A stretch of DNA of 45,771 nt, from positions 1 through 45,771 of IMG/VR virus record IMGVR_UViG_3300006114_000017. One strand, 5' to 3'. The notes below the pieces were generated by a model. That model was not told where the DNA came from. It saw nothing but the letters and a program-made list of their open reading frames with translations, and ran no database searches. The stretch's first letter is position 1; every line of letters starts with the position of its first letter. Made by a program: the position numbers and the translations under genes. Positions 5,422 through 45,771 of the stretch are shown piece after piece. This stretch comes from a virus.

Positions 5422-6882
5422 TTAAAGTGTCATCAGCCAATCGTCAGACATAACGTCCTGACGAGTAACTGTTGAGGCCGTTGTCAACCGACCCATTTCT
5501 GGCAAACGATTACTTCCGCTTGCCACTTTCTGGCTCCGGGGTTGACGAGCCCCAGACTCTTCAAACATGTCGATGGAAGCTACAAAACCTGCCAGCTTAA
5601 CATCAGACATTTGTTCAAACTTTGCGATGTGCTTAGCACGATCTTCGTGTTGGATCATGCTCATCTTTTCGAGACGATCTACAACTTGGATAGCAGCGAA
5701 GATCTTTTCACGGCTAGCCTGTACAGCGGCAACAGTGCCTGCGTAAGGAGCCAGGGCAGGGTTGGTGCCATCTTCGAAGTCGATTCTGCCGTGGCTAGGG
5801 CCGTGCAGTTGGTCATCAAGGATTCCTGTCTCGGTACCATCGTTGTAGAATGGTACGTAACCAGCGTCTTCACCGTTTACTTCCTCAGGAACGAGTGCGT
5901 TGGTCTGGTGGTCAGGCTGCATTACGCGCTGACGGTCCCAAACACCAGCCTGGTCATCAAGGTCACGGACATCAACAACCTGGAGGCTCTCCTGGTTACC
6001 GTTAGAAGCCTCCTTAGGCTCCTTCTTGCCATCGCAGTTCTTGGTCTTGCAACCAGGGCCACTGCACCACTCGGTGCGAGCAGACTTCTTCTTCTTCAAG
6101 AAAGCAGGCTTGTCGTCGTCGTCTTCGTCATCATCGTCTTCGCAGTCTTCGCAGCCCTTACCCTTGCAGTTCTTGCAGGATGACTTCTTGCTCTTAGACT
6201 TAGTCTTCTTCTTAGCGGCAGTCTTCTTGTCGTCTGCATCGTCATCATCGTCGGCACCGCCATCCGAGTCGCTGTCGTCGTCTGTGGCAGCAGTCTTGAT
6301 CTCTTCCAAGAGGCCCTCAAGAGCCTTCAGGTCGACAGAAGCTTGACGGTAGTCACCGGTAACAACAAGGTCGTTCTCGATGTCAGTTACGATGCTTGCA
6401 ACGGTACCAACAACCTGGTTGAGGTCATCGTTAGTGCTAGCAAAGCGCAGAACGGTTGCAGCGTCATTCGAAGCAGTGATAAGGTTATTGAAGTCGAAGT
6501 CAACTTCGTCACGGATAGCATCGCGTACTTCACGGCTAGCCTTGTAAACCTGGTACAGACTCTCGTCAATAGGGTTAATGCTTGCGTACATTGGGCCACC
6601 TTCAGAGTAAACGGCACTCGAGCCAGGACCACCGATGATTTCGCTTCCATCGTCAACGCCAGTGAAGTCACGGACATCAAGTTGACGTGTCATTGGCTGG
6701 TTAGCAATCCAGTCAGCTACTTCTTCAGTAGGAGCAGGAGCTTGCTCAGGCCAACCGCCTGAACCAAGACTGTCGACCTGGTCGTATGGTTGCACTCTTG
6801 GAGTGGTAGTCGTTCCCGACATGCCTCTTTGTTGGAAAGCATTTTCTGCTTGCTTAATCATCTCGTCATCAAAACGGCTCAT
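5422..6882 (-). CDS. Putative scaffolding-like protein (486 aa). It has a central poly-Asp/Glu tract followed by a poly-Lys tract containing CxxC knuckles.
   Basis: SD 'GAGGAG' lies 6 nt upstream of the ATG at 6880-6882. The protein has a helical charged composition and sits directly upstream of the capsid region. Low-complexity segments read ...DDDSDSDGGADDDDDADDKKTAAKKKTKSKSKKSSCKNCKGKGCEDCEDDDDEDDDD...CSGPGCKTKNC. Confidence 0.35.
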   Translation of the reverse strand: MSRFDDEMIKQAENAFQQRGMSGTTTTPRVQPYDQVDSLGSGGWPEQAPAPTEEVADWIANQPMTRQLDVRDFTGVDDGSEIIGGPGSSAVYSEGGPMYASINPIDESLYQVYKASREVRDAIRDEVDFDFNNLITASNDAATVLRFASTNDDLNQVVGTVASIVTDIENDLVVTGDYRQASVDLKALEGLLEEIKTAATDDDSDSDGGADDDDDADDKKTAAKKKTKSKSKKSSCKNCKGKGCEDCEDDDDEDDDDKPAFLKKKKSARTEWCSGPGCKTKNCDGKKEPKEASNGNQESLQVVDVRDLDDQAGVWDRQRVMQPDHQTNALVPEEVNGEDAGYVPFYNDGTETGILDDQLHGPSHGRIDFEDGTNPALAPYAGTVAAVQASREKIFAAIQVVDRLEKMSMIQHEDRAKHIAKFEQMSDVKLAGFVASIDMFEESGARQPRSQKVASGSNRLPEMGRLTTASTVTRQDVMSDDWLMTL

Positions 6883-9333: not shown

Positions 9334-11715
9334 TTATAAATCTTCCTTTGGAAGATCTGGGTGATAATCTCCGCTAATAGCAGGTGCACTGATCGCACTA
9401 TCTCCACCCATACTGTTGCCACCGGCCATATCAGCGATAGGGTTACCAGTATCTTCAGGGTTAGTAGGAGTAGGGATCATTGAGCTATCACCGTCAAGAG
9501 CATTAGCAAGATGTTGCTTAAATGCCTCTTCGTCAAACTTCTCATAGCTATTGTCAACAATAACCTTCATACCAGTAGCAAGCTTCATACGCTTACGCTT
9601 CTTCTGCTCAAATGGTACAGCGAACTTCATACGGTCACCGTATTCAACGCGACCACTAAAGTCATCGTAATCATCTTCGTCCCAACCAGATACGGATGCA
9701 GTCTTCTTCTTAGGTCCATTCTTAGGACCCTTCTTAGAAGGCTTAGGTTGGCTCTTACGCTGTTCGTAGCTTTCTTCTGGACGTTGACGTTGCTGAGCAG
9801 CTTCTTGGTTGATGCTTGGGTATACTTGTGCACCAGCAGCAGCGTCACTGTTGCCTGCGGCATTACCAGTCATATTGGGTGCGCTAGGTGGAGCTACAAG
9901 ACCAGCCATAGCACCTGGGGCAAGCTGTGCACCAAGCGATGGGTCTTCCATCATCGCTAGGTAGGCCTGGTATTCCTGTACATATTCTGGTGGTACTGGC
10001 AATTGCAGAACCATCAAACGGTTGAACAGTTCCTTCTTGAATTGCTGTTCAGCAACAACCGTCTTAATCTTCTCTTCCTTACGTGCATCAATCTCGTCAT
10101 CGAAGTCGATTGGGATATTGACAGCAAGTGTGCTGAGGGAGATGGGGAAGCCTGAGGCGCTGAGCTGCTGGAGGAACCCACGCTCAACTGTCTCATCTCT
10201 GAGGTTCATCGAACGGAATCTTACCTCTGGAATGGCCAGCTTGGGTCGTTCTTCAACATATTCAGCACCAGTCTCTTCATCAACCATGAGAACAGTTTCC
10301 ATAACAGGTACCATTTGGCCACCCACGTTACGCATCTCATAGTGACCTTGTCTTTCTGCTACTGGCTCCATACGGGAACGGATAAACTTCTCGATCTTGT
10401 GCTGGTAAGTACTAAGCATCTGAGTAATAAGCTCTCGGTTCAAAGCACCTGAAGCATAGGTACCACCCTGGCCACCCTGAATAAGGTCAGCACCGATACC
10501 GAATACACCCATGAGGTTTGTCTGTACACGCATGAAATCTGTGTCAAGACGAGGCATGCTTTCACGTCCAAAGGCGTTCTGGATCTGCAAACCGTGGTGG
10601 TATGTCATCAGACGGAAGTCTGAGTTAATAGCCATGGCCAAGTCGTCACGCAAAGACTGGAGCTCCATAGCATCTGGGATCCATGGACCGTCCTGGTCTA
10701 CGTCAGGAAGTCCCAAGGTAGCAAGGATAAGGGGAGAATACAGACGGTCAGCAATAGCGTCTTGAGCGGAGTTGAGGGACTCCTCAAGCATAAGAGTGCG
10801 AAAGGCACGAAGAAGAATAGGAGTACCATGTTCGCTCCACGGGTTGGTAGAGAACTTGATCTGCTTCATGATTACATCAGAAACAGGGATTTCCTTATCT
10901 TGTCTAGCCCAAGCCACAACGTCTGGATAGAGCTGCATAAGCATTGCATACTCTTGTGGAGGATCACGACGTTCGATAAGACGCTTGATCTCTTCAGGTA
11001 CCTTAACGTGGAACTGGTATGTTCTAAGAGCACGGTTCTTAGCGACGATAACGTCGTTAGGGTTGATGATCTCATCTTCTTCCCATGCACCAATACCATC
11101 GTGCCAAGAACCCATGGCGAACACTTCACCAACGGTCCAGTGCTCACGACCAAGGTCATAGAGGAAGTCTTGGTAATTAAGACCATCAAAGAACAACTCA
11201 TTATAGAAGTCAGAGATGCGCTTGTCGGGGTGTACTAGCTCGATGTCCAGCAAGGGGAAACGAGTATAGATGTCAATAAGACCAGGTACCAAGTGGTGAG
11301 TGGTGTAAAGAAGGCGAGCCCAGTCACGTATCTTACGAGTCTGCTCATCTGGGTCTTCCATGTTGAACCACCACGTGCGCTCACGCCAGTATTCAAATGG
11401 GTCGTGTAGCTTAGGAAGTGCCCACTGGGCATCTGATCCTGTAGCAGCAGCAGTTCTGCGGTTAGACGTTCTAGCCATGCCGTTCTCAGCAAGGAAGTCA
11501 GAACCTAACTTATTAAGACGTTGTCTACCCTCTGGAGGTCCACCCATTGCAGTAGCCATTGGACCAATGTCATTAAGCATTGATCCTGGCGTAGAAGCCC
11601 TATTGAGCATGTCACGTGCAGCGACACGCCCAGCAATAGGGTTCTTAGGAAGGGTGATACCAGATGTCTTCATGCGGCTAAATTCCGCAGAAGCACTCCA
11701 GTCGTTGGTAGCCAT
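9334..11715 (-). CDS. Putative portal protein (~793 aa)
   Basis: Large protein at the head of the morphogenesis block, with a long acidic/Lys-rich C-terminal tail. The first codon reported by the ORF tool is TTG at 11718. The ATG at 11715 was taken as the start. The call rests on size, position and composition. Confidence 0.55.
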   Translation of the reverse strand: MATNDWSASAEFSRMKTSGITLPKNPIAGRVAARDMLNRASTPGSMLNDIGPMATAMGGPPEGRQRLNKLGSDFLAENGMARTSNRRTAAATGSDAQWALPKLHDPFEYWRERTWWFNMEDPDEQTRKIRDWARLLYTTHHLVPGLIDIYTRFPLLDIELVHPDKRISDFYNELFFDGLNYQDFLYDLGREHWTVGEVFAMGSWHDGIGAWEEDEIINPNDVIVAKNRALRTYQFHVKVPEEIKRLIERRDPPQEYAMLMQLYPDVVAWARQDKEIPVSDVIMKQIKFSTNPWSEHGTPILLRAFRTLMLEESLNSAQDAIADRLYSPLILATLGLPDVDQDGPWIPDAMELQSLRDDLAMAINSDFRLMTYHHGLQIQNAFGRESMPRLDTDFMRVQTNLMGVFGIGADLIQGGQGGTYASGALNRELITQMLSTYQHKIEKFIRSRMEPVAERQGHYEMRNVGGQMVPVMETVLMVDEETGAEYVEERPKLAIPEVRFRSMNLRDETVERGFLQQLSASGFPISLSTLAVNIPIDFDDEIDARKEEKIKTVVAEQQFKKELFNRLMVLQLPVPPEYVQEYQAYLAMMEDPSLGAQLAPGAMAGLVAPPSAPNMTGNAAGNSDAAAGAQVYPSINQEAAQQRQRPEESYEQRKSQPKPSKKGPKNGPKKKTASVSGWDEDDYDDFSGRVEYGDRMKFAVPFEQKKRKRMKLATGMKVIVDNSYEKFDEEAFKQHLANALDGDSSMIPTPTNPEDTGNPIADMAGGNSMGGDSAISAPAISGDYHPDLPKEDL

Positions 11716-37443: not shown

Positions 37444-38724
37444 TTAGAACCTAAAGAACTTTTCGAGAACATCAACGGGGAGACCGATAGATGAAGTTCT
37501 TGCAGCAGGTGGGTTCGTTGGGTCTTTTGCCCAAGCTGCTCTAGAAGCAACATCTGCATTGTTTTTAGCTTTGTTGTAGTTCATGCCAGTTCCAGGAGTC
37601 GCTATAGCTTTTCCATGTGCTTCTGCTGCATCCATGTGTGCGAAGTAAGCTTCTCTGTGATCAGGGTTGTTACCATGGAAAGTATCAGCACCATGAAACT
37701 CTGGAGAACCATCGGAGTTTGTTCTTCCTGTCCATGGAGTGTTACCCTGCAACTTGTTAGCAGCATTGAGGTGATTATCACGCAAAGTTGCATGATAGTT
37801 ATTGGTATCATCCTTTTGGGAGTCTTTACGATCCATGAACATGTGTGCAGCATCATACATACCGGCTTGCTTGGATGCAGTGGCGTGACCAAAACCATCA
37901 GTCAGCTCAAGAGGACCACGATCAGCTTCGCCAGGTGTCATATCGTGTGAACGAGGAATTAAGTTGCTATTTGGTTTAATGTCATACAAGCTTTGACCTT
38001 CGCTCTGCTGAGGGGTCTTGTTGTAGAACTTGTATTGTGTGTAACCGTTGTAGTAGTCCTTGCTCAAGAGGGCAAGATCCTCGTCCATTGGCTTACCGGC
38101 TTGTGCATCGCCGTAGCCTTGGTAGTAAAGCTCACTGTCGTTAGCTTCTTTGAACATAGCGTAGAAAGCACCAGCGGCACCCATCTTGGCTTCTTCCTTA
38201 ACGATGTCACGCCCAGCATCAAGGTCGCCAGCAGTAGGGCCTTCTACTGTTGTAAGGCTCTCACCCGAGAAGTTATTTTCGCCAATGCCGTGGTCATTAG
38301 CAGGCTGGTTGCAACCACAATTTGTGCATGCAATGCGTGTTCCTGGGAAGTATGTCTTTTCGCAGTGATTACAGAATGGCTCACCATTCTCCATCACGTA
38401 TGCAATTCTTGCATTCATGCTCATGTTTGCTCCAATAATTGTTGATAGCGATCCTGGAGATACGCTAGAAAGCCCTTCATTGCTTACAACTGGTGGTTGC
38501 CCCTCGAGATCAATTGTATCCTTAGGCTCATCGCCCAAAGCAGTCAATCTCGTAGAGTTTTCGTCTTCGTTACCAATGTCTGCAAATCTAAAGTGGCCAA
38601 CAGTACCGACTTGGCTTTGTCCTGGAAGGCCAAACCCTGCATCGTCTTCTTCGGTAGCGTCTTCAATGCCTCGTAGCGAAGCATCGTCTCCGTAATTACC
38701 GTTATCCTGCGTAGCGTATCTCAT
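37444..38724 (-). CDS. Hypothetical protein (~426 aa) with a CNHC...CTNCGC cluster. Rich in Gly/Asp/Asn/Tyr.
   Basis: First codon at 38727 is TTG. The ATG at 38724 was taken as the start. Confidence 0.45.
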   Translation of the reverse strand: MRYATQDNGNYGDDASLRGIEDATEEDDAGFGLPGQSQVGTVGHFRFADIGNEDENSTRLTALGDEPKDTIDLEGQPPVVSNEGLSSVSPGSLSTIIGANMSMNARIAYVMENGEPFCNHCEKTYFPGTRIACTNCGCNQPANDHGIGENNFSGESLTTVEGPTAGDLDAGRDIVKEEAKMGAAGAFYAMFKEANDSELYYQGYGDAQAGKPMDEDLALLSKDYYNGYTQYKFYNKTPQQSEGQSLYDIKPNSNLIPRSHDMTPGEADRGPLELTDGFGHATASKQAGMYDAAHMFMDRKDSQKDDTNNYHATLRDNHLNAANKLQGNTPWTGRTNSDGSPEFHGADTFHGNNPDHREAYFAHMDAAEAHGKAIATPGTGMNYNKAKNNADVASRAAWAKDPTNPPAARTSSIGLPVDVLEKFFRF

Positions 38725-38759
38725 CAATGACTAGTGCGCCTTGGGGGCTATTTTAACTC

Positions 38760-39839
38760 TTATTCCCAGCTGGTTGGTTTGTCATTGTTAGTTGAATTGA
38801 AACGATCTTCATTCAACAAATCAATTAATCTATTGCTGCTACCAGTGATTGGTCGAGCTGGCGTTGGGAAGTTAGATATAGTTTGTGGGAAATTAAGCTC
38901 AAGGTTAATTCCTGCTCCAGGACCAGATGACCCTTTTTCTGGCGTTTGCTTTGTAGGCATTGGTTCTTGACCAGTTTCAAGCTTAGTTTTCTGTTGTGGT
39001 GGGTTACTAGTCTCTTGCTCACTCTTAGTAGAAGTTTCTTCTTCAAGAGAAGGTTCTGGCATAGCTTCTGTTTTATCACCAATTGTTTTAGGAGCTGGCT
39101 GCCAAGTTGTGGGAGATGGTTGTGGTGTGCTAGGAGGAGTCTTTGATGGCTTACCAGGAACAGTGAAAGGTGGAACTGTGATTGGCTTAGTAGGAGCCAA
39201 TGGGTGAGTCTCGAGAGGCATGATGCTACCAACTACGGGGTTAGCAGGGCTTGCAAAGCTCTGTCCACCACCAGAATCTGGCGTATTGTTGATATCATTG
39301 CTATTGTCGCCATTTTCATTACCGCTTGAGTTGCTACTAGGCAAGTTCTTCAATGCATCGCTAAGGCCACCACCTTCTGCACCTGCAGCGGCCTCTCCAG
39401 CGCCAGCGACTGCTTCTCCAGCACCAAGAAGCTCTGGGATAGCAAGAAGAGGACCAGCAGTCACAATTGTGCTTGCTGTGACCATGCGAAGTTCCTTAGC
39501 AGCGAACCCCTTACCAGCTTCTGACTGGTAAACTTGGTTATCTGTCAATGCATAAGGAATAACGTTAACAGTTGCGTGCGCTTTGCGCAGCATTTCTGTT
39601 GCAATGCCTTGGTTTCGGTATTCTGGCTCGACGTAAACACCATCCATGATGTAGTTGCCACTAGCTTGCTTTTCAGCAGTGAAATAACCGATTCTTTCGT
39701 CTCCAACCATTGCTTCAACAAGAAGACCAGAGAACGTGCCACCAGTCTTGTATTGCATTGGGCCAACGTTAGCAACAATTCGAACCTTGTCACCTTGTTC
39801 TTCAAGGATCTCATTAAGTCTTGGTGGGATAGTAGCCAT
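38760..39839 (-). CDS. N-terminal GNAT acetyltransferase-like domain fused to a long Pro/Thr/Ser/Gln-rich (mucin-like) low-complexity tail (359 aa)
   Basis: VYVEPEYRNQGIATEMLRKA matches the GNAT acetyl-CoA-binding motif A (Q/RxxGxG/A). The tail reads ...PTKPITVPPFTVPGKPSKTPPSTPQPSPTTWQPAPKT... Confidence 0.4.
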   Translation of the reverse strand: MATIPPRLNEILEEQGDKVRIVANVGPMQYKTGGTFSGLLVEAMVGDERIGYFTAEKQASGNYIMDGVYVEPEYRNQGIATEMLRKAHATVNVIPYALTDNQVYQSEAGKGFAAKELRMVTASTIVTAGPLLAIPELLGAGEAVAGAGEAAAGAEGGGLSDALKNLPSSNSSGNENGDNSNDINNTPDSGGGQSFASPANPVVGSIMPLETHPLAPTKPITVPPFTVPGKPSKTPPSTPQPSPTTWQPAPKTIGDKTEAMPEPSLEEETSTKSEQETSNPPQQKTKLETGQEPMPTKQTPEKGSSGPGAGINLELNFPQTISNFPTPARPITGSSNRLIDLLNEDRFNSTNNDKPTSWE

Positions 39840-40594
39840 TATAGTTTTCCTAGGTCAGTAGTGAGGTCTTCAAGGCGCATATCGCCATATTGACCCTTTT
39901 CAACAATCTCTGGAGTGATGAGAGCCCAGCTCTCTTCCATGTAGCTTTGCAGCCATCTCCACGTTACCTTCTGCACTTTACCCCAGGTAATACATTCAGC
40001 GTAGTCCTTGTCGTAACCTACGAGGATGACACAGTGGCCACCTTCGATCTGATTGTCAGCAGGAGTGCCTGTAAGGTCCCATGGCTGGTTGTCAAGGAAT
40101 TGCTGCTGGAAGGTGACTGGGAGCTTTACACCAATGTATACAAGCCCATATGAGGCAATTACGCTACGGAGCTCATCAAGGTCAGCATGGTCAGTAGGGG
40201 CGAACGCAGCAAGCTTTGTGTTGAACAAGCCGTTGGTCTGCCAGTACTTTAGTAGGTCCGCCTCGACCGCTCCAGCATCTTGTCCATTCGTATAATTGAG
40301 ATAACTTTGCTCGACTTCGGTGTCAGAAGGGAATCCTTCTGTAAGTTGTAAGAAAGCAGCGTTAGCCATTCTGGCGTGAACAATACCAGCAAAAGTACAA
40401 TCCCCATATTTATCATTTCCTAACATTCCCCAATTATCTACGTTTGGCACTGCTACGCTCTCTGGTGCAGCTGGCAACGGGTTGCCCTGATAGAAAGCAA
40501 GCATGTGCAACCCAGCAGGGCGCTTAGGATCTAGCTTACCTAATTTACCAACAATACGATCAGTCATTATTATCTCCCATAAACATCTTTCCAT
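39839..40594 (-). CDS. Papain-like (C1-like) cysteine protease (251 aa)
   Basis: Catalytic Cys context KYGDCTFAGIVHA. The His block GGHCVILVGYDKDYAECITWGKV is strikingly like papain-family D-HAVxxVGYG...I.NSWG. Confidence 0.45.
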   Translation of the reverse strand: MERCLWEIIMTDRIVGKLGKLDPKRPAGLHMLAFYQGNPLPAAPESVAVPNVDNWGMLGNDKYGDCTFAGIVHARMANAAFLQLTEGFPSDTEVEQSYLNYTNGQDAGAVEADLLKYWQTNGLFNTKLAAFAPTDHADLDELRSVIASYGLVYIGVKLPVTFQQQFLDNQPWDLTGTPADNQIEGGHCVILVGYDKDYAECITWGKVQKVTWRWLQSYMEESWALITPEIVEKGQYGDMRLEDLTTDLGKL

Positions 40595-40938
40595 TGACTA
40601 AAAGTCAAACCAGTTTTGCCTGCAAGGAACGAGTGAGTGTTGCAATATGGCCTTGGCACTGAAGAATCAGACCAATGCATGTATTTTGCTTCGTACTTCT
40701 TACCTTGGCAGTCGCCATGAGCACATGCAGCCATACCCTTGCGGTCTACGTAAGGTGCTTTCCTAGTTTTCTTAGGAGGCTCTGGCTGTGGGTTCTCTGC
40801 TAAGTACTTCTGCGTGTTCTCGCAATCGGTAGTGTCTTTGCACCTACCGCTGCTAACGATTGTGTGGGTGCCATCATCTGATGCACCACAGAGCTGACAT
40901 TGGTCAGGACGAGCAGCGTAACGTTCTGACCAAGACAT
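40570..40938 (-). CDS. Small Cys-rich protein (122 aa). N-terminus MSWSERYAAR...
   Basis: ORF track. Motifs CQLCG, CKDTTDC and CAHGDC. Confidence 0.4.
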   Translation of the reverse strand: MSWSERYAARPDQCQLCGASDDGTHTIVSSGRCKDTTDCENTQKYLAENPQPEPPKKTRKAPYVDRKGMAACAHGDCQGKKYEAKYMHWSDSSVPRPYCNTHSFLAGKTGLTFSQWKDVYGR

Positions 40939-41414
40939 TAGAAGTATTTCTGTCGTTCTGACGGAGTCATCTTGCCTGATTTTGCTACAGCAGCATCGTG
41001 GCTCAGCGGTGTTGGGTTGGGGTTATGACGTCCATTGACTATTGTTTCTCCAACTGATCTAAGCAAGCTATAGTGATTGGGAATAACATTTTTGTTGAGA
41101 GCGTCAATCGCTTCATCATGTGTAGCTAGCAGTCTGGGCTCTAAAGCTTCTGGGCCACCAAGCCATGGATCATTGCGTGCACGTGCACTAACATATAAAC
41201 TGATATTGTGACCCTGGGTATAGGCATGCATCATTTCGTCTTCGGTAATACCGTGTCGCCTAGCATCATCAACATGCTTCTTTTGAATAAGCTTGGGGTT
41301 GCCTGAGTTGGCGTGATCAATCAGCTTCTCAAAGTAGTGTGGATCACCATAACCAAAGGTATCTTCAGCTGCGTATCTTCTTTTCCAATTCATTAATCTT
41401 CTCCAAGGATCCAA
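40938..41414 (-). CDS. Hypothetical protein (158 aa). Contains ...MNWKRRYAAED... near its N-terminus.
   Basis: ORF track. ATGA overlap with the downstream gene. Confidence 0.4.
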   Translation of the reverse strand: MDPWRRLMNWKRRYAAEDTFGYGDPHYFEKLIDHANSGNPKLIQKKHVDDARRHGITEDEMMHAYTQGHNISLYVSARARNDPWLGGPEALEPRLLATHDEAIDALNKNVIPNHYSLLRSVGETIVNGRHNPNPTPLSHDAAVAKSGKMTPSERQKYF

Positions 41415-41584
41415 TCGGCTACTTCTTTACTGCGTGAGTGTTCTTGTCCAATAGATGGCCCTTCTTGTCTACTCAGTTCAGAAATAATGTGTTTTTCTGC
41501 TTCAGTAGTGTTAGGGCATTGCAGTTTAGGCCAGCCATGGCATGAACAGCTTTCTGCTGCGTATCTTTTAGACCAATTACTCAT
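41393..41584 (-). CDS. Small Cys protein (63 aa). N-terminus MSNWSKRYAAESCSCH...
   Basis: ORF track. Confidence 0.35.
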   Translation of the reverse strand: MSNWSKRYAAESCSCHGWPKLQCPNTTEAEKHIISELSRQEGPSIGQEHSRSKEVADWILGED

Positions 41585-42003
41585 TTGATGAGTCCTCTCA
41601 CGTATTTTGCTGCCTCAAAGTCACTGTAAGCTGTGACGTGTTTGCCACCATGACCTCTGTGGTGGAAAAGGCATAGCCATTCCAGGTTTGTTGCGCTCTC
41701 TACCCATGCACCAACGGTGTCTGGGTCGCTAACGCCGGGGTAATCGACTTCGAGCCACTTAAGATCGACGCCATTCTGCAATGAGAACTCAATATGAGTG
41801 TGGTGAAGCTCCAAAGGGTGCTCAGAGTCGCACTCACTGAAGTCATTGCGGTGTTCACCGATAGCACATTTAGCTGTTGCCTTCGTTTTCTCACGGAAAT
41901 GGTGAAAATCGACGTAATGTGGGTCATCTTCACGCTCTGGGTGAGGTGGATAGTGAACGGTGTAATGATGAGTGATGTTCTGGTCGTGTTCTTCGACGGT
42001 CAT
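41581..42003 (-). CDS. His-rich protein, possibly HNH/His-Me-finger nuclease-like (140 aa)
   Basis: Pattern C-x10-C ... LELHHTHIEF ... N ... LEWLCLFHHRGH resembles the HNH layout of a Cys pair, catalytic HH, Asn and a CxxH pair. Weak. Confidence 0.3.
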   Translation of the reverse strand: MTVEEHDQNITHHYTVHYPPHPEREDDPHYVDFHHFREKTKATAKCAIGEHRNDFSECDSEHPLELHHTHIEFSLQNGVDLKWLEVDYPGVSDPDTVGAWVESATNLEWLCLFHHRGHGGKHVTAYSDFEAAKYVRGLIK

Positions 42004-42395
42004 TAGTCTTTTTCCCTTCTATCTTGCTGAAGGTAGTCAATAACTTCGTCTAAACTGCCAAAAACGCGTATATCATCTTCATATTCGTCGTTATCTAGGT
42101 CAAAATCGTCTTCATCTGACGAAAAAAGCTCTTCCATGATCATCTGGAAAGCAGAAAAGGTGATTTCTCTTGAATATTCTACAAAAACACCGTCATGCTG
42201 ACAGTATTCACTTACGTTAATACGATAAGTGTGGTCTTCATCGTCATCTTTTGGCTTATCGATGGAGAAATCATCTGAAAGAGAGGAAATCTGGGCAATA
42301 CTCTCCTTAAACCGGGAGACATATGCACTTTTCTCTGTAGTATCACTGTACTTTGCTATGTTCTTGCAAGTTTCACAGTCACAGTTGTTTGACAT
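42003..42395 (-). CDS. Very acidic small protein (130 aa; N-terminal CDCETC, C-terminal Asp/Glu runs)
   Basis: ATG at 42393-42395, with an AGGAA SD and a near-consensus sigma70-like promoter upstream. Confidence 0.45.
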   Translation of the reverse strand: MSNNCDCETCKNIAKYSDTTEKSAYVSRFKESIAQISSLSDDFSIDKPKDDDEDHTYRINVSEYCQHDGVFVEYSREITFSAFQMIMEELFSSDEDDFDLDNDEYEDDIRVFGSLDEVIDYLQQDRREKD

Positions 42396-42412
42396 GTTTT
42401 CCTTAGTTATAT

Positions 42413-42441
42413 ATATAAGAGGATTTTTTAAATTTTGTCAA
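42413..42441 (-). promoter_or_regulatory. Sigma70-like promoter on the minus strand: TTGACA -N17- TTATAT, then an AGGAA SD, driving the acidic-protein gene
   Basis: The -35 hexamer is the reverse complement of plus 42436-42441 and the -10 of plus 42413-42418. It lies in an AT-rich 72-nt intergenic gap. Confidence 0.35.
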
Positions 42442-42467
42442 TAGATTTTAAGATAAAACTTTAAAAT

Positions 42468-43583
42468 TTATTCGCCAGAGTAGCTATCATCAGCGTGAAC
42501 AGCTCTATTTATAGCTGTTGAAGGACTGTAAAGGTGAGAAACACCCTCTCCACCTCTCGCACGATGACGTACTCTTGGTGCAACTACAGCTGCATGGTTG
42601 TCTTCGTCCTGTCTAAAGTTGACATGGTGGTTGATAATGGTCTGTTCAGCCTTCGTACCATACAAAACACGGTGGTGTGAACGTCTTCCGACCTTACCAA
42701 ACTCTCCAGCTTCCTTAGAAACGGGGAAACCAGCGAAATAAGCGGCTCTAATCTTGGGATCTTGAGTTCTTTTGGCTGCTTCTTCGTGGTGTTGCATGTC
42801 CCAAAGCTGGTTTGTGGGGTGAGTACTGTCATTTACAACGCAGTATGGGCAGAAACACTTAACAAAACGGGCAGTTTTACCCTGATCGATGACATTTTGC
42901 TCAACAGGATCGATAGCATCGTGCGTATTGCACATGTTATTGATGGTGTGGTTGAATGCGTGGTGCACTGCAAGGTCACCATGGGTGTGATCACTGACAG
43001 TTTTCATGGCATCTCGGTAGAACTTAGGGTCCTTGATGCCATTACGCTTACCCTCGTTGAATGCCATGATCGTTTCAATGTGCGATTGGCCCAAAGCTGA
43101 GAGTGGGTGGACCATCAAACGCTCACCAGTCTTTGCATTCACGTGTTCACCGGCACGGAAAGCACGATCATCCAGGTGGCCCTCTTCGCTGGGAGCAATC
43201 ATCATAGTAGGTTGATGGATACCCTGCTCGAGCTTGTAAGGCTTACCAGTGGTCTTGTTGCGAACAGCAACGGTCATGTAGTCACTTGCGGTTTTAACGT
43301 TGGCAAGCTGCGAGTGAGCGCGACTGTGATACCAGTCGCCCTTTTTGCTTTGCTTCAAGCCAAACAAACGCACTGCGTCAGGATTGGGCTCTTCGCCCTC
43401 ACCAAGGCTACCTATGTAGTGATTAGCGGCTTTCTCAGCAGCATGAGGCACATGATAGTACTCAGGGTCTTCCTTGTGGGTGGCGTAGCCAGTACCCTCT
43501 TGGAAGATAAGCGTCATAGCGTTGGCAGGTCCGCCAGTCTTGAATTGCTTATCGTGTTTTGCAGCTTCTCTGCTGTTGAACAT
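42468..43583 (-). CDS. Hypothetical His-rich protein (371 aa)
   Basis: ATG at 43581-43583. An AGGAG SD lies 8 nt upstream. Confidence 0.45.
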   Translation of the reverse strand: MFNSREAAKHDKQFKTGGPANAMTLIFQEGTGYATHKEDPEYYHVPHAAEKAANHYIGSLGEGEEPNPDAVRLFGLKQSKKGDWYHSRAHSQLANVKTASDYMTVAVRNKTTGKPYKLEQGIHQPTMMIAPSEEGHLDDRAFRAGEHVNAKTGERLMVHPLSALGQSHIETIMAFNEGKRNGIKDPKFYRDAMKTVSDHTHGDLAVHHAFNHTINNMCNTHDAIDPVEQNVIDQGKTARFVKCFCPYCVVNDSTHPTNQLWDMQHHEEAAKRTQDPKIRAAYFAGFPVSKEAGEFGKVGRRSHHRVLYGTKAEQTIINHHVNFRQDEDNHAAVVAPRVRHRARGGEGVSHLYSPSTAINRAVHADDSYSGE

Positions 43584-43689
43584 AAGTTGTACTCCTAGTT
43601 AAGTTAAAACAGGCACCGCGCGTCACCGGCCCTAGACCCGATTCCGAATTTTCTTTTACCCTTATGTTATAAGGGGTTTAGACTCTTAG

Positions 43690-44355
43690 TTAGCAACCAC
43701 CACGGCAAATCCATCCAGTACCGTATTCTTGACTTGGGTCCCAAACAATGTCTTGGGTGTTTCCACAGTTGTAGCAGTAGCGAGAATTGCCTGGGATGTG
43801 CCCATCCATAGGCTTATTTTCCCCCATTGAGTTATCGTTGGCGTAACGCTCAGCGAAAGAAGCACTCTTAGGCTTAAGTGGTGGCACATCGCGAACGTGC
43901 TTGTAGACTTGTGGGTCGTACTTAGTGTCTGGGTCTTGCATCATTTTCACTCTTGAATTAAGAGGAACGTTAGGATTTGTTACTTCTTTGCTAATGTTTG
44001 TCTGAGGAGCCTTGCTCTTTGTGCTTGTCTGCTCTGTGGGGAAATGCTTTTCCATAAGATCACTATAGTGTTCCACAAGGCTCTTTTGGTTAACGCCTGG
44101 TTGTGTGCGCTTCAGTACTTCTTGGTGCATCTCATTAATTTTGCCAACGCCTTGCTGGAACTTCCCAATGCTGTCCATAACGTCATTGTGGTTATTACGG
44201 ACTTCATCAACCATTCTTGCATTAGGGACGTTAGGCTTGTTCTTTTCGTATTCATCACGCGTTTGGTATCTATTCTCAGCGATTCTAATCGCCGCCATTT
44301 TTGCATTGCCAAGTGAGTTCTGGTAGCTCTTTGACCAGTCGTTGAATTGTGCCAT
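43690..44355 (-). CDS. Hypothetical protein (221 aa) with a C-terminal zinc ribbon (CYNCGNT...CRGGC). N-terminus MAQFNDWSKSYQNS. It is the first gene of the minus-strand unit.
   Basis: ORF track. Confidence 0.45.
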   Translation of the reverse strand: MAQFNDWSKSYQNSLGNAKMAAIRIAENRYQTRDEYEKNKPNVPNARMVDEVRNNHNDVMDSIGKFQQGVGKINEMHQEVLKRTQPGVNQKSLVEHYSDLMEKHFPTEQTSTKSKAPQTNISKEVTNPNVPLNSRVKMMQDPDTKYDPQVYKHVRDVPPLKPKSASFAERYANDNSMGENKPMDGHIPGNSRYCYNCGNTQDIVWDPSQEYGTGWICRGGC

Positions 44356-44908
44356 GGTGTAGCCCTTTGTAGATAGTAGAACGATTGCTATCCCCTATAC
44401 CAAGAACTATATGTATTTACATTATTCTCTCTTTTTTTCTATCTACTTTAGTGCACCTAGTATTTCATACGTGGCCAAGGCCTCCGGCATTTTTAATTCT
44501 TACCAGTACGATCTCAACGCCTGCTCTATCGAATACCCCATAGGGCTGCCCGCCATTTTTTAAAGGCGTTTCTATACGCTCCCATTGGGACCCCTATTGG
44601 CGAGCCTTACAGAGCCTTTTAGGCCCCTCTCAAGGCACTCCTCTAAAACCCTTTAGTTCTGGAAATGGCAAAACCTACCATCCTATTTCACGCCTTGGAT
44701 TGCGTGTTAGTTACACGCTAGCAAAAGATTATGAACTTCTTTGCGTCCTTGGGCACAATGTCCAAGTGAGGCTGAGAACTCATGGTCCTAGCAATCACCT
44801 GTATGTTGCTGAACTACAGCACCGTACAGCTGTGTGCGCAAACGTACTACTCAGTAGTGCGCGAACGTACGCAGCAACCCAACACCTATGCATTAGAAAG
44901 AGATTAAA
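44356..44908. promoter_or_regulatory. A 553-bp non-coding strand-switch region carrying short repeats and a dyad element
   Basis: No ORF of 60 aa or more. It separates minus-strand genes (ending at 44355) from plus-strand genes (starting at 44909). It contains CCCATAGGG / CCCATTGGG / CCCCTATTGG motifs and TGCGCAAACGTAC-TACTCAGTAG-TGCGCGAACGTAC. Confidence 0.4.
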
Positions 44909-45094
44909 ATGAAGCGTTTTCAGCTGATTTCCCTGCTCCTTGGTAGCTTTGCGTTCACGTTCGCAGTATCGTTCGTGAACACAATGATCTCGTGGTACAC
45001 ACCCATGGGGCAGGCACAGACCGTACTCACGGTCTCGTTGTCGTTCACCTTCGTGGTGTTCGTGGCTGCAGTCCTGTACACAGCCAAGAAGTAG
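44909..45094 (+). CDS. Small membrane protein with two predicted TM helices (61 aa)
   Basis: ATG at 44909 with a purine-rich AAGAGA upstream. Hydrophobic segments LISLLLGSFAFTFAVSFV and VLTVSLSFTFVVFVAAVLY. Confidence 0.4.
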   Translation: MKRFQLISLLLGSFAFTFAVSFVNTMISWYTPMGQAQTVLTVSLSFTFVVFVAAVLYTAKK

Positions 45095-45176
45095 TACGCA
45101 ATGCCGAAATCATCACGTCGGGAGATGTTGTGGTCGTCGTAGGGTGATGCCTACGGCCTGATGATGGCAGTCAGCT

Positions 45177-45224
45177 AACTAAACCAGTCCTGAGGAGGAC
45201 ACTATGAAGGAAGTAACAACGATC
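45177..45224 (+). repeat. Copy 1 of an exact 48-bp direct repeat: AACTAAACCAGTCCTGAGGAGGACACT + ATG + AAGGAAGTAACAACGATC. It covers the SD and the first 7 codons.
   Basis: Read directly from the sequence. The second copy is at 45625..45672. Confidence 0.8.
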
Positions 45225-45572
45225 GACGCTGCTAAGGCTTTGGTTGAGCACTACGCTGCTGCGGCTGAGCTCATGACTGCTGAGGCTAAGGCTGAGTACG
45301 AGGCTGCTTTGGCTGCGTACGAGGCTGTTGAGGCTAAGTACGAGGCTAAGCAGGACGCTGCTTGGGCTAAGCGTGACGCTGCTAAGGCTGAGTACTACGC
45401 TGCTCAGGCTGAGTTCAAGGCTGCCGAGGCTGAGTTCGACGATGCTTGGGCTGAGTACCACGCTGCTTTGGCTAAGTACGACGCTGCTTTGTCTAAGCCT
45501 GAGGTCAAGGCTGCTTGGGCTAAGTTCTACGCTGCTATGGCTGAGCTCAACGCTGCTCAGGCTGAGCAGTAA
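45204..45572 (+). CDS. Ala-rich acidic repeat protein (122 aa) with heptad spacing of aromatic residues
   Basis: Strong GAGGAGG SD 7 nt upstream. Extreme codon bias (Ala=GCT, Glu=GAG, Lys=AAG, Tyr=TAC). Repeats of the form AEYEAAL/AAYEAVE/AKYEAKQ. The antisense ORFs listed here are shadows. Confidence 0.55.
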   Translation: MKEVTTIDAAKALVEHYAAAAELMTAEAKAEYEAALAAYEAVEAKYEAKQDAAWAKRDAAKAEYYAAQAEFKAAEAEFDDAWAEYHAALAKYDAALSKPEVKAAWAKFYAAMAELNAAQAEQ

Positions 45573-45624
45573 CAGCTCGGTTCACAAGGGGTATGAGCTC
45601 CACCCCACCCAACGGGCTCAACCC

Positions 45625-45672
45625 AACTAAACCAGTCCTGAGGAGGACACTATGAAGGAAGTAACAACGATC
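45625..45672 (+). repeat. Copy 2 of the 48-bp direct repeat
   Basis: Read directly from the sequence. Confidence 0.8.
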
Positions 45673-45771
45673 AGCGGTTCCGTCTACCTCATCAATGAAG
45701 ATGAGCAGATGTGGTGCCGGAAGTCAACTGCCCCTGTGCGCAAGTACGATAACGGGGAGTACGTCGACACC
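45652..45771 (+). CDS. Hypothetical protein, N-terminal fragment (MKEVTTISGSVYLINEDEQMWCRK...). Continues beyond the window end.
   Basis: Same SD and first 7 codons as the previous gene. Open to the window end. Confidence 0.45.
   Translation, partial: MKEVTTISGSVYLINEDEQMWCRKSTAPVRKYDNGEYVDT

Follow-up and report, generated by a model that had tools for sequence, protein, structure and literature searches.

A portable gene-start module beside a hammerhead ribozyme as a probable crossover site in the small-gene block of an uncultured tailed phage

The 45,771-nucleotide (nt) stretch of IMG/VR virus record IMGVR_UViG_3300006114_000017 analysed here (hereafter, the window) comes from an uncultured tailed phage and carries an exact 48-bp repeat that supplies the leader, the Shine-Dalgarno (SD) sequence and the first seven codons of two otherwise unrelated plus-strand genes. 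We propose that the repeat is a portable gene-start module, and that its copies are probably identical through recent homologous recombination or gene conversion in which the module serves as the crossover site. The observations that carry this proposal are the repeat itself, a type II hammerhead ribozyme adjacent to copy 1 (recognised by model score and covariation), a gene family that shares the start, mosaic gene orders among relatives, and breakpoints at or near the module, all of which can be read directly.

The 48-mer, AACTAAACCAGTCCTGAGGAGGACACTATGAAGGAAGTAACAACGATC, is present in two exact copies on the plus strand, at positions 45177–45224 and 45625–45672, with 0 mismatches and a spacing of 448 nt, as an earlier note on the window had stated. 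No third copy exists in the window even with three mismatches allowed, and chance matches are not expected (0 expected; 0 in 100 dinucleotide shuffles). The edges of the repeat are sharp at both the 5′ and the 3′ side. Each copy is composed of a 27-nt 5′ untranslated region (5′UTR) and 21 coding nt, comprising the ATG and six further codons (MKEVTTI). Specifically, copy 1 contains the 5′UTR at 45177–45203, the ATG at 45204 and codons 1–7 at 45204–45224, and its leader can fold into a hairpin in which GUCCU (45187–45191) pairs with AGGAC (45196–45200) around a GAGG loop, placing the SD sequence GGAGG (45194–45198) half in the loop and half in the 5-bp stem, 5 nt before the ATG. The hairpin of copy 2 is formed by 45635–45639 and 45644–45648, with the SD sequence at 45642–45646 and the ATG at 45652. 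The folding energy of the leader hairpin is −7.4 kcal/mol. Past codon 7, the two open reading frames are unrelated, in accordance with the earlier note: one encodes a 122-amino-acid (aa) alanine (Ala)-rich protein, and the other encodes MKEVTTISGSVYLI..., which we call gp86. No intrinsic-terminator-like site is found on the plus strand between the repeat-bearing genes, the place being taken by a ribozyme or a pseudoknot-like element. At each copy the minus strand also gave a terminator-like call; these were rejected, as they correspond to the SD hairpin read backwards.

Five contigs from other samples (JGI 3300025450, 3300025416 and 3300025403; ENA ERZ27272019 and ERZ27271956) span both copies with 99.95–100% identity to the window and with the 448-nt copy spacing retained. 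Because these contigs span both copies, the repeat is real, and the assembly artefact that had been named in advance as a possible refutation does not account for it. One of the five, L001, is 100% identical to window positions 38595–45771 and adds 3.1 kb beyond the window end.

Relatives were found through the exact Ala-rich protein and gp86, and we distinguish lineage A, represented by the window, from lineage B, represented by L007–L016. The minus-strand genes that the two lineages share are 68–77% identical at the nucleotide level. Against this background, the small-gene region appears to have been rearranged at the module. Contig L002 matches the window at 99.97% identity for 5,740 nt, as far as position 45627; from 45627/45628 on, 3 nt inside copy 2, it has a different leader followed by a different gene (MPAPKTKNLRK...). 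Therefore, a strain-level polymorphism breaks no more than 3 nt from the 5′ edge of copy 2. The window, L002 and L146 share one sequence for the body of the Ala-rich gene and the downstream pseudoknot-like element, except for a 3-nt indel and one substitution just past codon 7 and a C/T position in the pseudoknot-like element, and they present it in three flank contexts. The pseudoknot-AACCC-48-mer junction of window copy 2 recurs unchanged in L146, where it heads an Ala-rich gene. Lineage B has three module copies in a gene order unlike that of the window, in which a tRNA-like element precedes the module of gp86, a hammerhead precedes the module of a 98-aa Ala-rich gene, and a pseudoknot-like element precedes the module of a 71-aa Ala-rich gene. 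Gene order is mosaic across the relatives as a whole. Several contigs end at or near the module, which fits local heterogeneity, although it is only a hint.

The gp86 gene differs between lineages A and B at only 3 of 261 nt (98.9% identity), and all three differences are non-synonymous, with no synonymous change seen. The identity runs from the ATG to TAACAAACGCCGAA, the 5′ core of the downstream hammerhead, while the upstream leaders and the downstream ribozyme stems differ. Furthermore, the leaders carry lineage-specific states. Both window copies have CCAGTCCTGAGGAGGACACTATG, and all three lineage B copies have ACAGTCCT(T)AAGGAGGACAC-ATG; the two states include a 1-nt indel, paralogous copies within a lineage agree, and other lineages have mosaic intermediates. 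Leader states that are specific to a lineage and common to its paralogous copies appear to need gene conversion or repeated exchange.

The 122-aa protein (gene at 45204–45572, plus strand) is a heptad-repeat protein with 37% Ala, an isoelectric point of 4.6, an aromatic residue at about every seventh position and a 21-nt period in its DNA. Its AlphaFold model is all-helical, with a predicted local distance difference test (pLDDT) score of 88, and has no significant match in the PDB. A search for homologues with the protein body, less the first 7 residues, gave no matches, an outcome that the composition filter of HMMER probably explains. The protein belongs to a family (the window and loci L135–L153) with 1–3 genes per genome, whose members are 30–182 aa long and mostly start with MKEVTT and end with AEQ. 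Internal deletions and fusions are apparent, as in L136 (30 aa), which has the same ends as L138 (100 aa), and in L139 (182 aa). Among 13 distinct members in these loci, 11 begin with MKEVTT, MKEATT or MKEVTM, and the leaders that precede these starts are of at least five types; the other two members begin with MTNFDVF or MTKLYVY. A metagenome scan with the pattern GGAGG-N3-7-ATGAAGGAAGTAACAAC returned 21 DNA stretches, all of which head Ala-rich heptad proteins except for two chance matches in an unrelated capsid-type gene. The 17-mer of this pattern is unchanged behind the different upstream leaders, and the sole changes seen are non-synonymous (V to A, T to M). The further copies for which the earlier note proposed a search are absent from the window and present outside it, with one to three module-headed genes in many related lineages.

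gp86 is the sole gene outside the Ala-rich family that carries the MKEVTT start. The window end cuts the gene (45652–45771, plus strand), which is complete at L001 7058–7318, where it encodes 86 aa and is followed by a second hammerhead. It has only two homologues, 97% and 85% identical, both with the MKEVTT start. As MKEVTT is so widespread among the Ala-rich proteins, the family is favoured as the owner of the module and gp86 as its recipient; against this, MKEVTT does not resemble the remainder of these proteins, and two weak similarities of gp86, described below, include VTTI. gp86 is either a 5′-end chimera or the module donor. Pfam and PHROGs gave nothing usable for both repeat-bearing proteins and their neighbours, and the AlphaFold model of gp86 was discarded as too poor (pLDDT 52). 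An exhaustive HMMER search with gp86 returned the known 85% homologue and three giant repeat proteins (E-values from 1e-4 to 1e-5). We did not accept the latter as proof of homology, since they belong to differing domain families and the score of about 25 bits per repeat is not significant; in a 2309-aa protein, the aligned part comprises the start of Fib_succ_major repeats, opposite gp86 residues 3–62. A match of gp86 residues 3–28 to Vault_4 was likewise set aside, because the full protein scores 21.7 bits, below the cut-off of 22.9 bits.

Upstream of copy 1, positions 45100–45178 of the plus strand contain a type II hammerhead ribozyme, matched by the Rfam model RF02276 with 31.5 bits (via L001 6508–6582). 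Copy 1 begins 3 nt past the last ribozyme nucleotide. Stem II is formed by GCC (45103–45105) and GGC (45166–45168), stem III occupies 45109–45134, and stem I is formed by 45136–45143 and 45150–45157 with a GUGAUG loop (45144–45149). The catalytic core is canonical, with CUGAUGA at 45158–45164, GAA at 45106–45108, the A45109–U45134 pair and C45135. Loops close off stems I and III and stem II is open, and this architecture is supported by covariation: each of the 17 counted pairs is 100% paired, six of them change on both sides (four in stem I, two in stem III), and slid-partner controls give 25–54% pairing. Across 10 distinct copies, the core is invariant save for N7, which is U or C. In addition, UGAU (45145–45148) in loop I can form 4 bp with GUCA (45170–45173) in the tail, as a potential pseudoknot; this is the case in 10 of 10 copies, the positions never vary, and the change from UGG/CCA in the Rfam consensus to UGAU/GUCA looks compensatory. 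A covariance model built from these copies has exactly one match in the window, with 105.8 bits. L001 contains three RF02276 sites, that of the window and those at L001 7321–7387 and 9188–9254 (27.9–36.7 bits), and two copies in the relative L138 pass the Rfam gathering score of 37 (38.3 and 37.5 bits). On the evidence of its sequence, the hammerhead that precedes copy 1 would most likely cut itself between C45135 and G45136.

Before copy 2 stands another kind of element. The plus-strand segment 45588–45620, which ends 4 nt before the copy, reads GGGG-UA-UGAGCUC-CA-CCCC-ACCCAAC-GGGCUCA, and would allow two interlocked helices, GGGG (45588–45591) with CCCC (45603–45606) and UGAGCUC (45594–45600) with GGGCUCA (45614–45620). 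This putative pseudoknot pairing was read by eye, and Rfam has no family for it. Most of 11 distinct contexts show almost no change in the core, which is about 37 nt long, and only CCAACGGGCTCA is retained in contexts L142 and L144. The variation is mainly between C and U, compatible with a change from G-C to G·U pairs; L143 has one G fewer. The element also occurs at L007 ~10675–10711 and ~10963–10999 and at other loci, and in relatives it follows Ala-rich genes and a 49-aa gene and usually precedes a 47-aa gene (MPAPKTKNLRK).

Other leaders in this group of phages carry RNA features of their own. Directly upstream of the lineage B gp86 leader, L008 7005–7054 has a tRNA-like minihelix, composed of a 7-bp acceptor stem and a T arm with GGTTCGATCCCC, which the mascRNA model matches weakly (E = 0.17) and which may be a processing site for RNase P/Z. 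An SD sequence within a 5-bp hairpin is also seen in other leader types, for example at L001 9003–9023, L007 ~11010–11034 and L148 ~6020–6043, with compensating outer pairs (UCCCU/AGGGA, CACCU/AGGUG). Such hairpins are found in 17 of 26 strong-SD leaders, compared with 10.8 ± 2.3 when the upstream bases are shuffled; this enrichment is modest evidence of regulation, and the leaders are mutually non-independent.

In the mechanism that we propose, the small plus-strand genes would act as cassettes, and the hammerhead, the pseudoknot-like element, the minihelix (in relatives) and the start module would form their boundaries. The MKEVTT start heads a multi-copy, fast-changing family of small Ala-rich genes and, in the window phage, the unrelated gp86 as well. 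At the DNA level, the module and the conserved RNA elements would give short blocks of identity for homologous recombination, and exchange between co-infecting relatives or intragenomic copies would swap whole cassettes with the genes unbroken. At the RNA level, the hammerhead would cut a long transcript at C45135|G45136, to release an mRNA that starts with the ribozyme stem I hairpin and continues into the module as a standard translation initiation region. We infer that such cleavage would take place in vivo; the SD hairpin may have an effect on translation, and a regulatory role for it is possible. Several suggestions of the earlier note bear on this scheme. A hotspot for recombination that swaps cassettes is supported by the L002 breakpoint, by the contrast between gp86 and the shared minus-strand genes, and by the mosaic gene orders. 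An RNA-processing site was sought in the right neighbourhood, as it is lacking inside the repeat and probably present beside it in the form of the hammerhead, and the idea of a translation-initiation element holds insofar as the repeat, with its SD hairpin and start codon, is plainly a translation initiation region.

Several points weigh against this mechanism. Recombination as a process is drawn solely from sequence patterns, and very strong selection, instead of recent transfer, might in principle have kept gp86 nearly identical, although none of its three differences is synonymous. Because the metagenome search demanded the exact 17-mer, its count of MKEVTT starts is biased. The sub-threshold Vault_4 and Fib_succ_major similarities of gp86 include VTTI, which hints that VTTI may have belonged to gp86 from the outset. 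The leader hairpin is ordinary in stability for its composition (z = −0.73 against shuffles), and its stem is invariant within its own leader type. As for the hammerhead, the 31.5 bits of the window copy lie under the Rfam gathering score, an extra U (45165) is inserted between A9 and G10.1, and in two of the three ribozymes of the lineage (L001 7321–7387 and 9188–9254) U15.1-A16.1 replaces A-U.

The identity of the module might instead be kept mainly because it is an RNA operator, in which a translational regulator of the phage or the host binds the SD hairpin and the first codons and co-regulates the genes, with recombination being secondary. T4 RegA, a translational regulator that co-regulates its targets, offers an analogy. 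The position of the SD sequence within a hairpin, the enrichment of similar hairpins with compensating outer pairs in other leaders, and the constancy of ATGAAGGAAGTAACAAC behind at least five leaders with only non-synonymous changes would all agree with an operator. However, the invariance of the 17-mer is partly circular, as the 17-mer was the search criterion, no candidate regulator was identified, and the module-edge breakpoints and the contrast of 98.9% with 68–77% identity would be left unexplained. We therefore regard the operator as an unlikely principal cause, although it is compatible with the portable module. A transcriptional role of the leader, as a promoter or transcription-factor site, is highly improbable, though a phage-specific promoter type is conceivable. 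No sigma-70-like site is found in or next to either copy, contrary to the suggestion of the earlier note, the element lies 0–27 nt before the start codon within a tight same-strand gene series, and a conserved island at 44640–44695 is a better candidate.

Selection on the peptide is another way to explain the sharing, with MKEVTT(I) as a functional N-terminal tag, for example for capsid targeting. The MKEVTTI N-terminus indeed stands on two unrelated proteins, the 122-aa Ala-rich protein and gp86, and the start is kept on nearly all Ala-rich members and on gp86, including its 85%-identical homologue; T4 internal proteins, which are diverse and share only a conserved targeting sequence, provide a precedent (PMC3012670). 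We nevertheless judge a tag to be quite unlikely, for the identity spans 27 non-coding nt and every synonymous site, more than a peptide constraint would call for, and the absence of synonymous variation together with the identical non-coding nt points to causes at the DNA or RNA level. Moreover, the peptide has only 6–7 residues without an obvious protease motif, two family members that follow the same leader type start otherwise (MTNFDVF and MTKLYVY), the small-gene block to which the genes belong and the virion genes are on opposite strands, and the breakpoints would again go unexplained. A neutral footprint of a single recent local duplication or insertion, with no further role, would suit the young look of two exact copies 448 nt apart. 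It is very unlikely, because the module heads one to three genes in many lineages in varying orders, the strain-level polymorphism breaks at the module edge, and the copies of the second lineage share a variant of their own, which together mean repeated events at the same site. Finally, the window ends 99 nt past copy 2, and the ends of several related contigs likewise fall at the module or close to it, as might be seen with a mis-join or another assembly artefact; given the five contigs from other samples that span both copies at 99.95–100% identity, the probability of this is close to nil.

A broader version of the portable-module reading is possible, though we hold it only tentatively and think it more doubtful than not. 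The plus-strand block as a whole might shuffle and express its small genes in the manner of an integron, but with no integrase, and the RNA elements and the start module would have a dual role as punctuation and as exchange homology. In the RNA, the ribozymes, the pseudoknot-like element and the start module would serve to cut and translate each cassette; in the DNA, the same elements would be the homology blocks for cassette exchange between co-infecting phages. Homology that extends into the first seven codons would graft a ready-made start onto foreign or newborn open reading frames, and the Ala-rich family may stem from repeat expansion, with its 21-nt period, behind a captured start.

The repeat lies at the start of a series of small plus-strand genes, in a window whose genes are nearly all on the minus strand. 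As had been pointed out, both copies are in a GC-rich block, with 54.6% GC at 44909–45771 compared with 46.1% in the rest of the window. The first plus-strand gene past the strand switch (44909–45094) encodes a predicted 61-aa membrane protein; its stop codon is 5 nt upstream of the ribozyme, and the same gene precedes the ribozyme in L001–L006. The divergent intergenic region contains a 56-nt island at 44640–44695 (AAAACCCTTTAGTTCTGGAAATGGCAAAAC...) that is 89% identical between lineages otherwise 68–77% identical, and this island may be an early promoter or an operator. Conserved as well are two hairpin-plus-T-run motifs, at ~44463–44490 and ~44540–44565. A few genes downstream in the same small-gene block, L001 9448–9867 encodes an HNH_3 endonuclease; homing endonucleases can stimulate local recombination. 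A tRNA gene also lies among the plus-strand small genes (L001 7724–7794 and L007 12023–12092; 55–57 bits with Rfam), with an anticodon loop of apparently 6 nt, for which ARAGORN reports 'tRNA-???' with a two-base anticodon.

The window contains five tRNA genes, and PHROGs recognises the portal and one virion protein. The portal is 39% identical to the portals of cluster C mycobacteriophages and is the sole gene with matches, which are distant. Among GenBank phages (INPHARED), the DNA of the region has no match, and tblastn with a 486-aa protein as query found none. In IMG/VR, the 48-mer and a relaxed leader pattern had 0 matches, as did the pseudoknot core and a long hammerhead pattern; the single matches to a short hammerhead-core pattern, at least 118 in number, were chance-like and were not used. 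A GTDB genome scan for the leader likewise gave 0 matches and hence no host clue.

The closest likeness is to the PeSL mobile regulatory cassettes of T4-type phages (PMC2839356; PMC4122927), in which promoter-terminator motifs flank small genes and crossovers occur between the SD sequence, the −10 element and the ATG (PMC2839356). In both cases, conserved composite intergenic motifs stand beside small genes of mostly unknown function in variable regions, and insertions, deletions and replacements between close relatives cross over in the motifs, including between the SD sequence and the start codon. At the window locus, this is seen in the break at 45627/45628, in gp86 bounded by the start module and the ribozyme core, and in the mosaic orders. 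It is a feature of PeSL that the motif brings expression signals along with the gene. Nevertheless, PeSL consists of a sigma-70-type early promoter and a terminator stem-loop; because neither was found here, the locus is PeSL-like in behaviour only and is not PeSL. Its blocks are instead a ribozyme predicted to cleave itself, a pseudoknot-like element and a module for the start of translation, recombinants share an N-terminus because the first 21 nt of the coding sequence are part of the homology, and the phage group, as judged by its portal, is unrelated to T4.

Multiple type II hammerheads are known to flank single genes or short gene blocks in prophages, where the processing of long transcripts has been suggested (PMC3088659) and cutting of the transcript proposed (PMC3088659, PMC6765202), and bacterial and phage hammerheads are still without a demonstrated biological role (PMC6765202). 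The ribozyme described here shares with those of prophages the permuted architecture, with stem II open, and could form the same pairing of loop I with a tail just 3′ of stem II (PMC3088659). It differs in that the 48-mer lies outside the ribozyme, starting 3 nt after it, and in that the 5′ core of the ribozyme coincides with a cassette boundary in the window phage, which is not described in that paper. The T4 capsid targeting sequence resembles the module as a short conserved N-terminus on unrelated, fast-evolving phage proteins (PMC3012670). The module, in contrast, is conserved at the nucleotide level, untranslated leader included.

In integron cassette arrays, small genes that lack promoters are shuffled and have a boundary element that is conserved, and the window block is alike in these respects. 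It differs in that no integrase or attC-like site was found, and exchange would use general homologous recombination. Hammerheads flanking phage genes are already known; new are hammerheads at cassette boundaries and a shared start that gives chimeric N-termini. Should the locus prove ordinary, it would still illustrate cleanly how phages evolve by modules. It presents a compact testable case, with one ribozyme, a predicted cleavage site at C45135|G45136 and a defined downstream start that is reused elsewhere, and natural strain-level variants in which small-gene shuffling outside the T4 group has its probable crossover points at conserved RNA elements and at a start module. The comparison extends the PeSL idea past promoter-terminator motifs and shows a route to chimeric N-termini.

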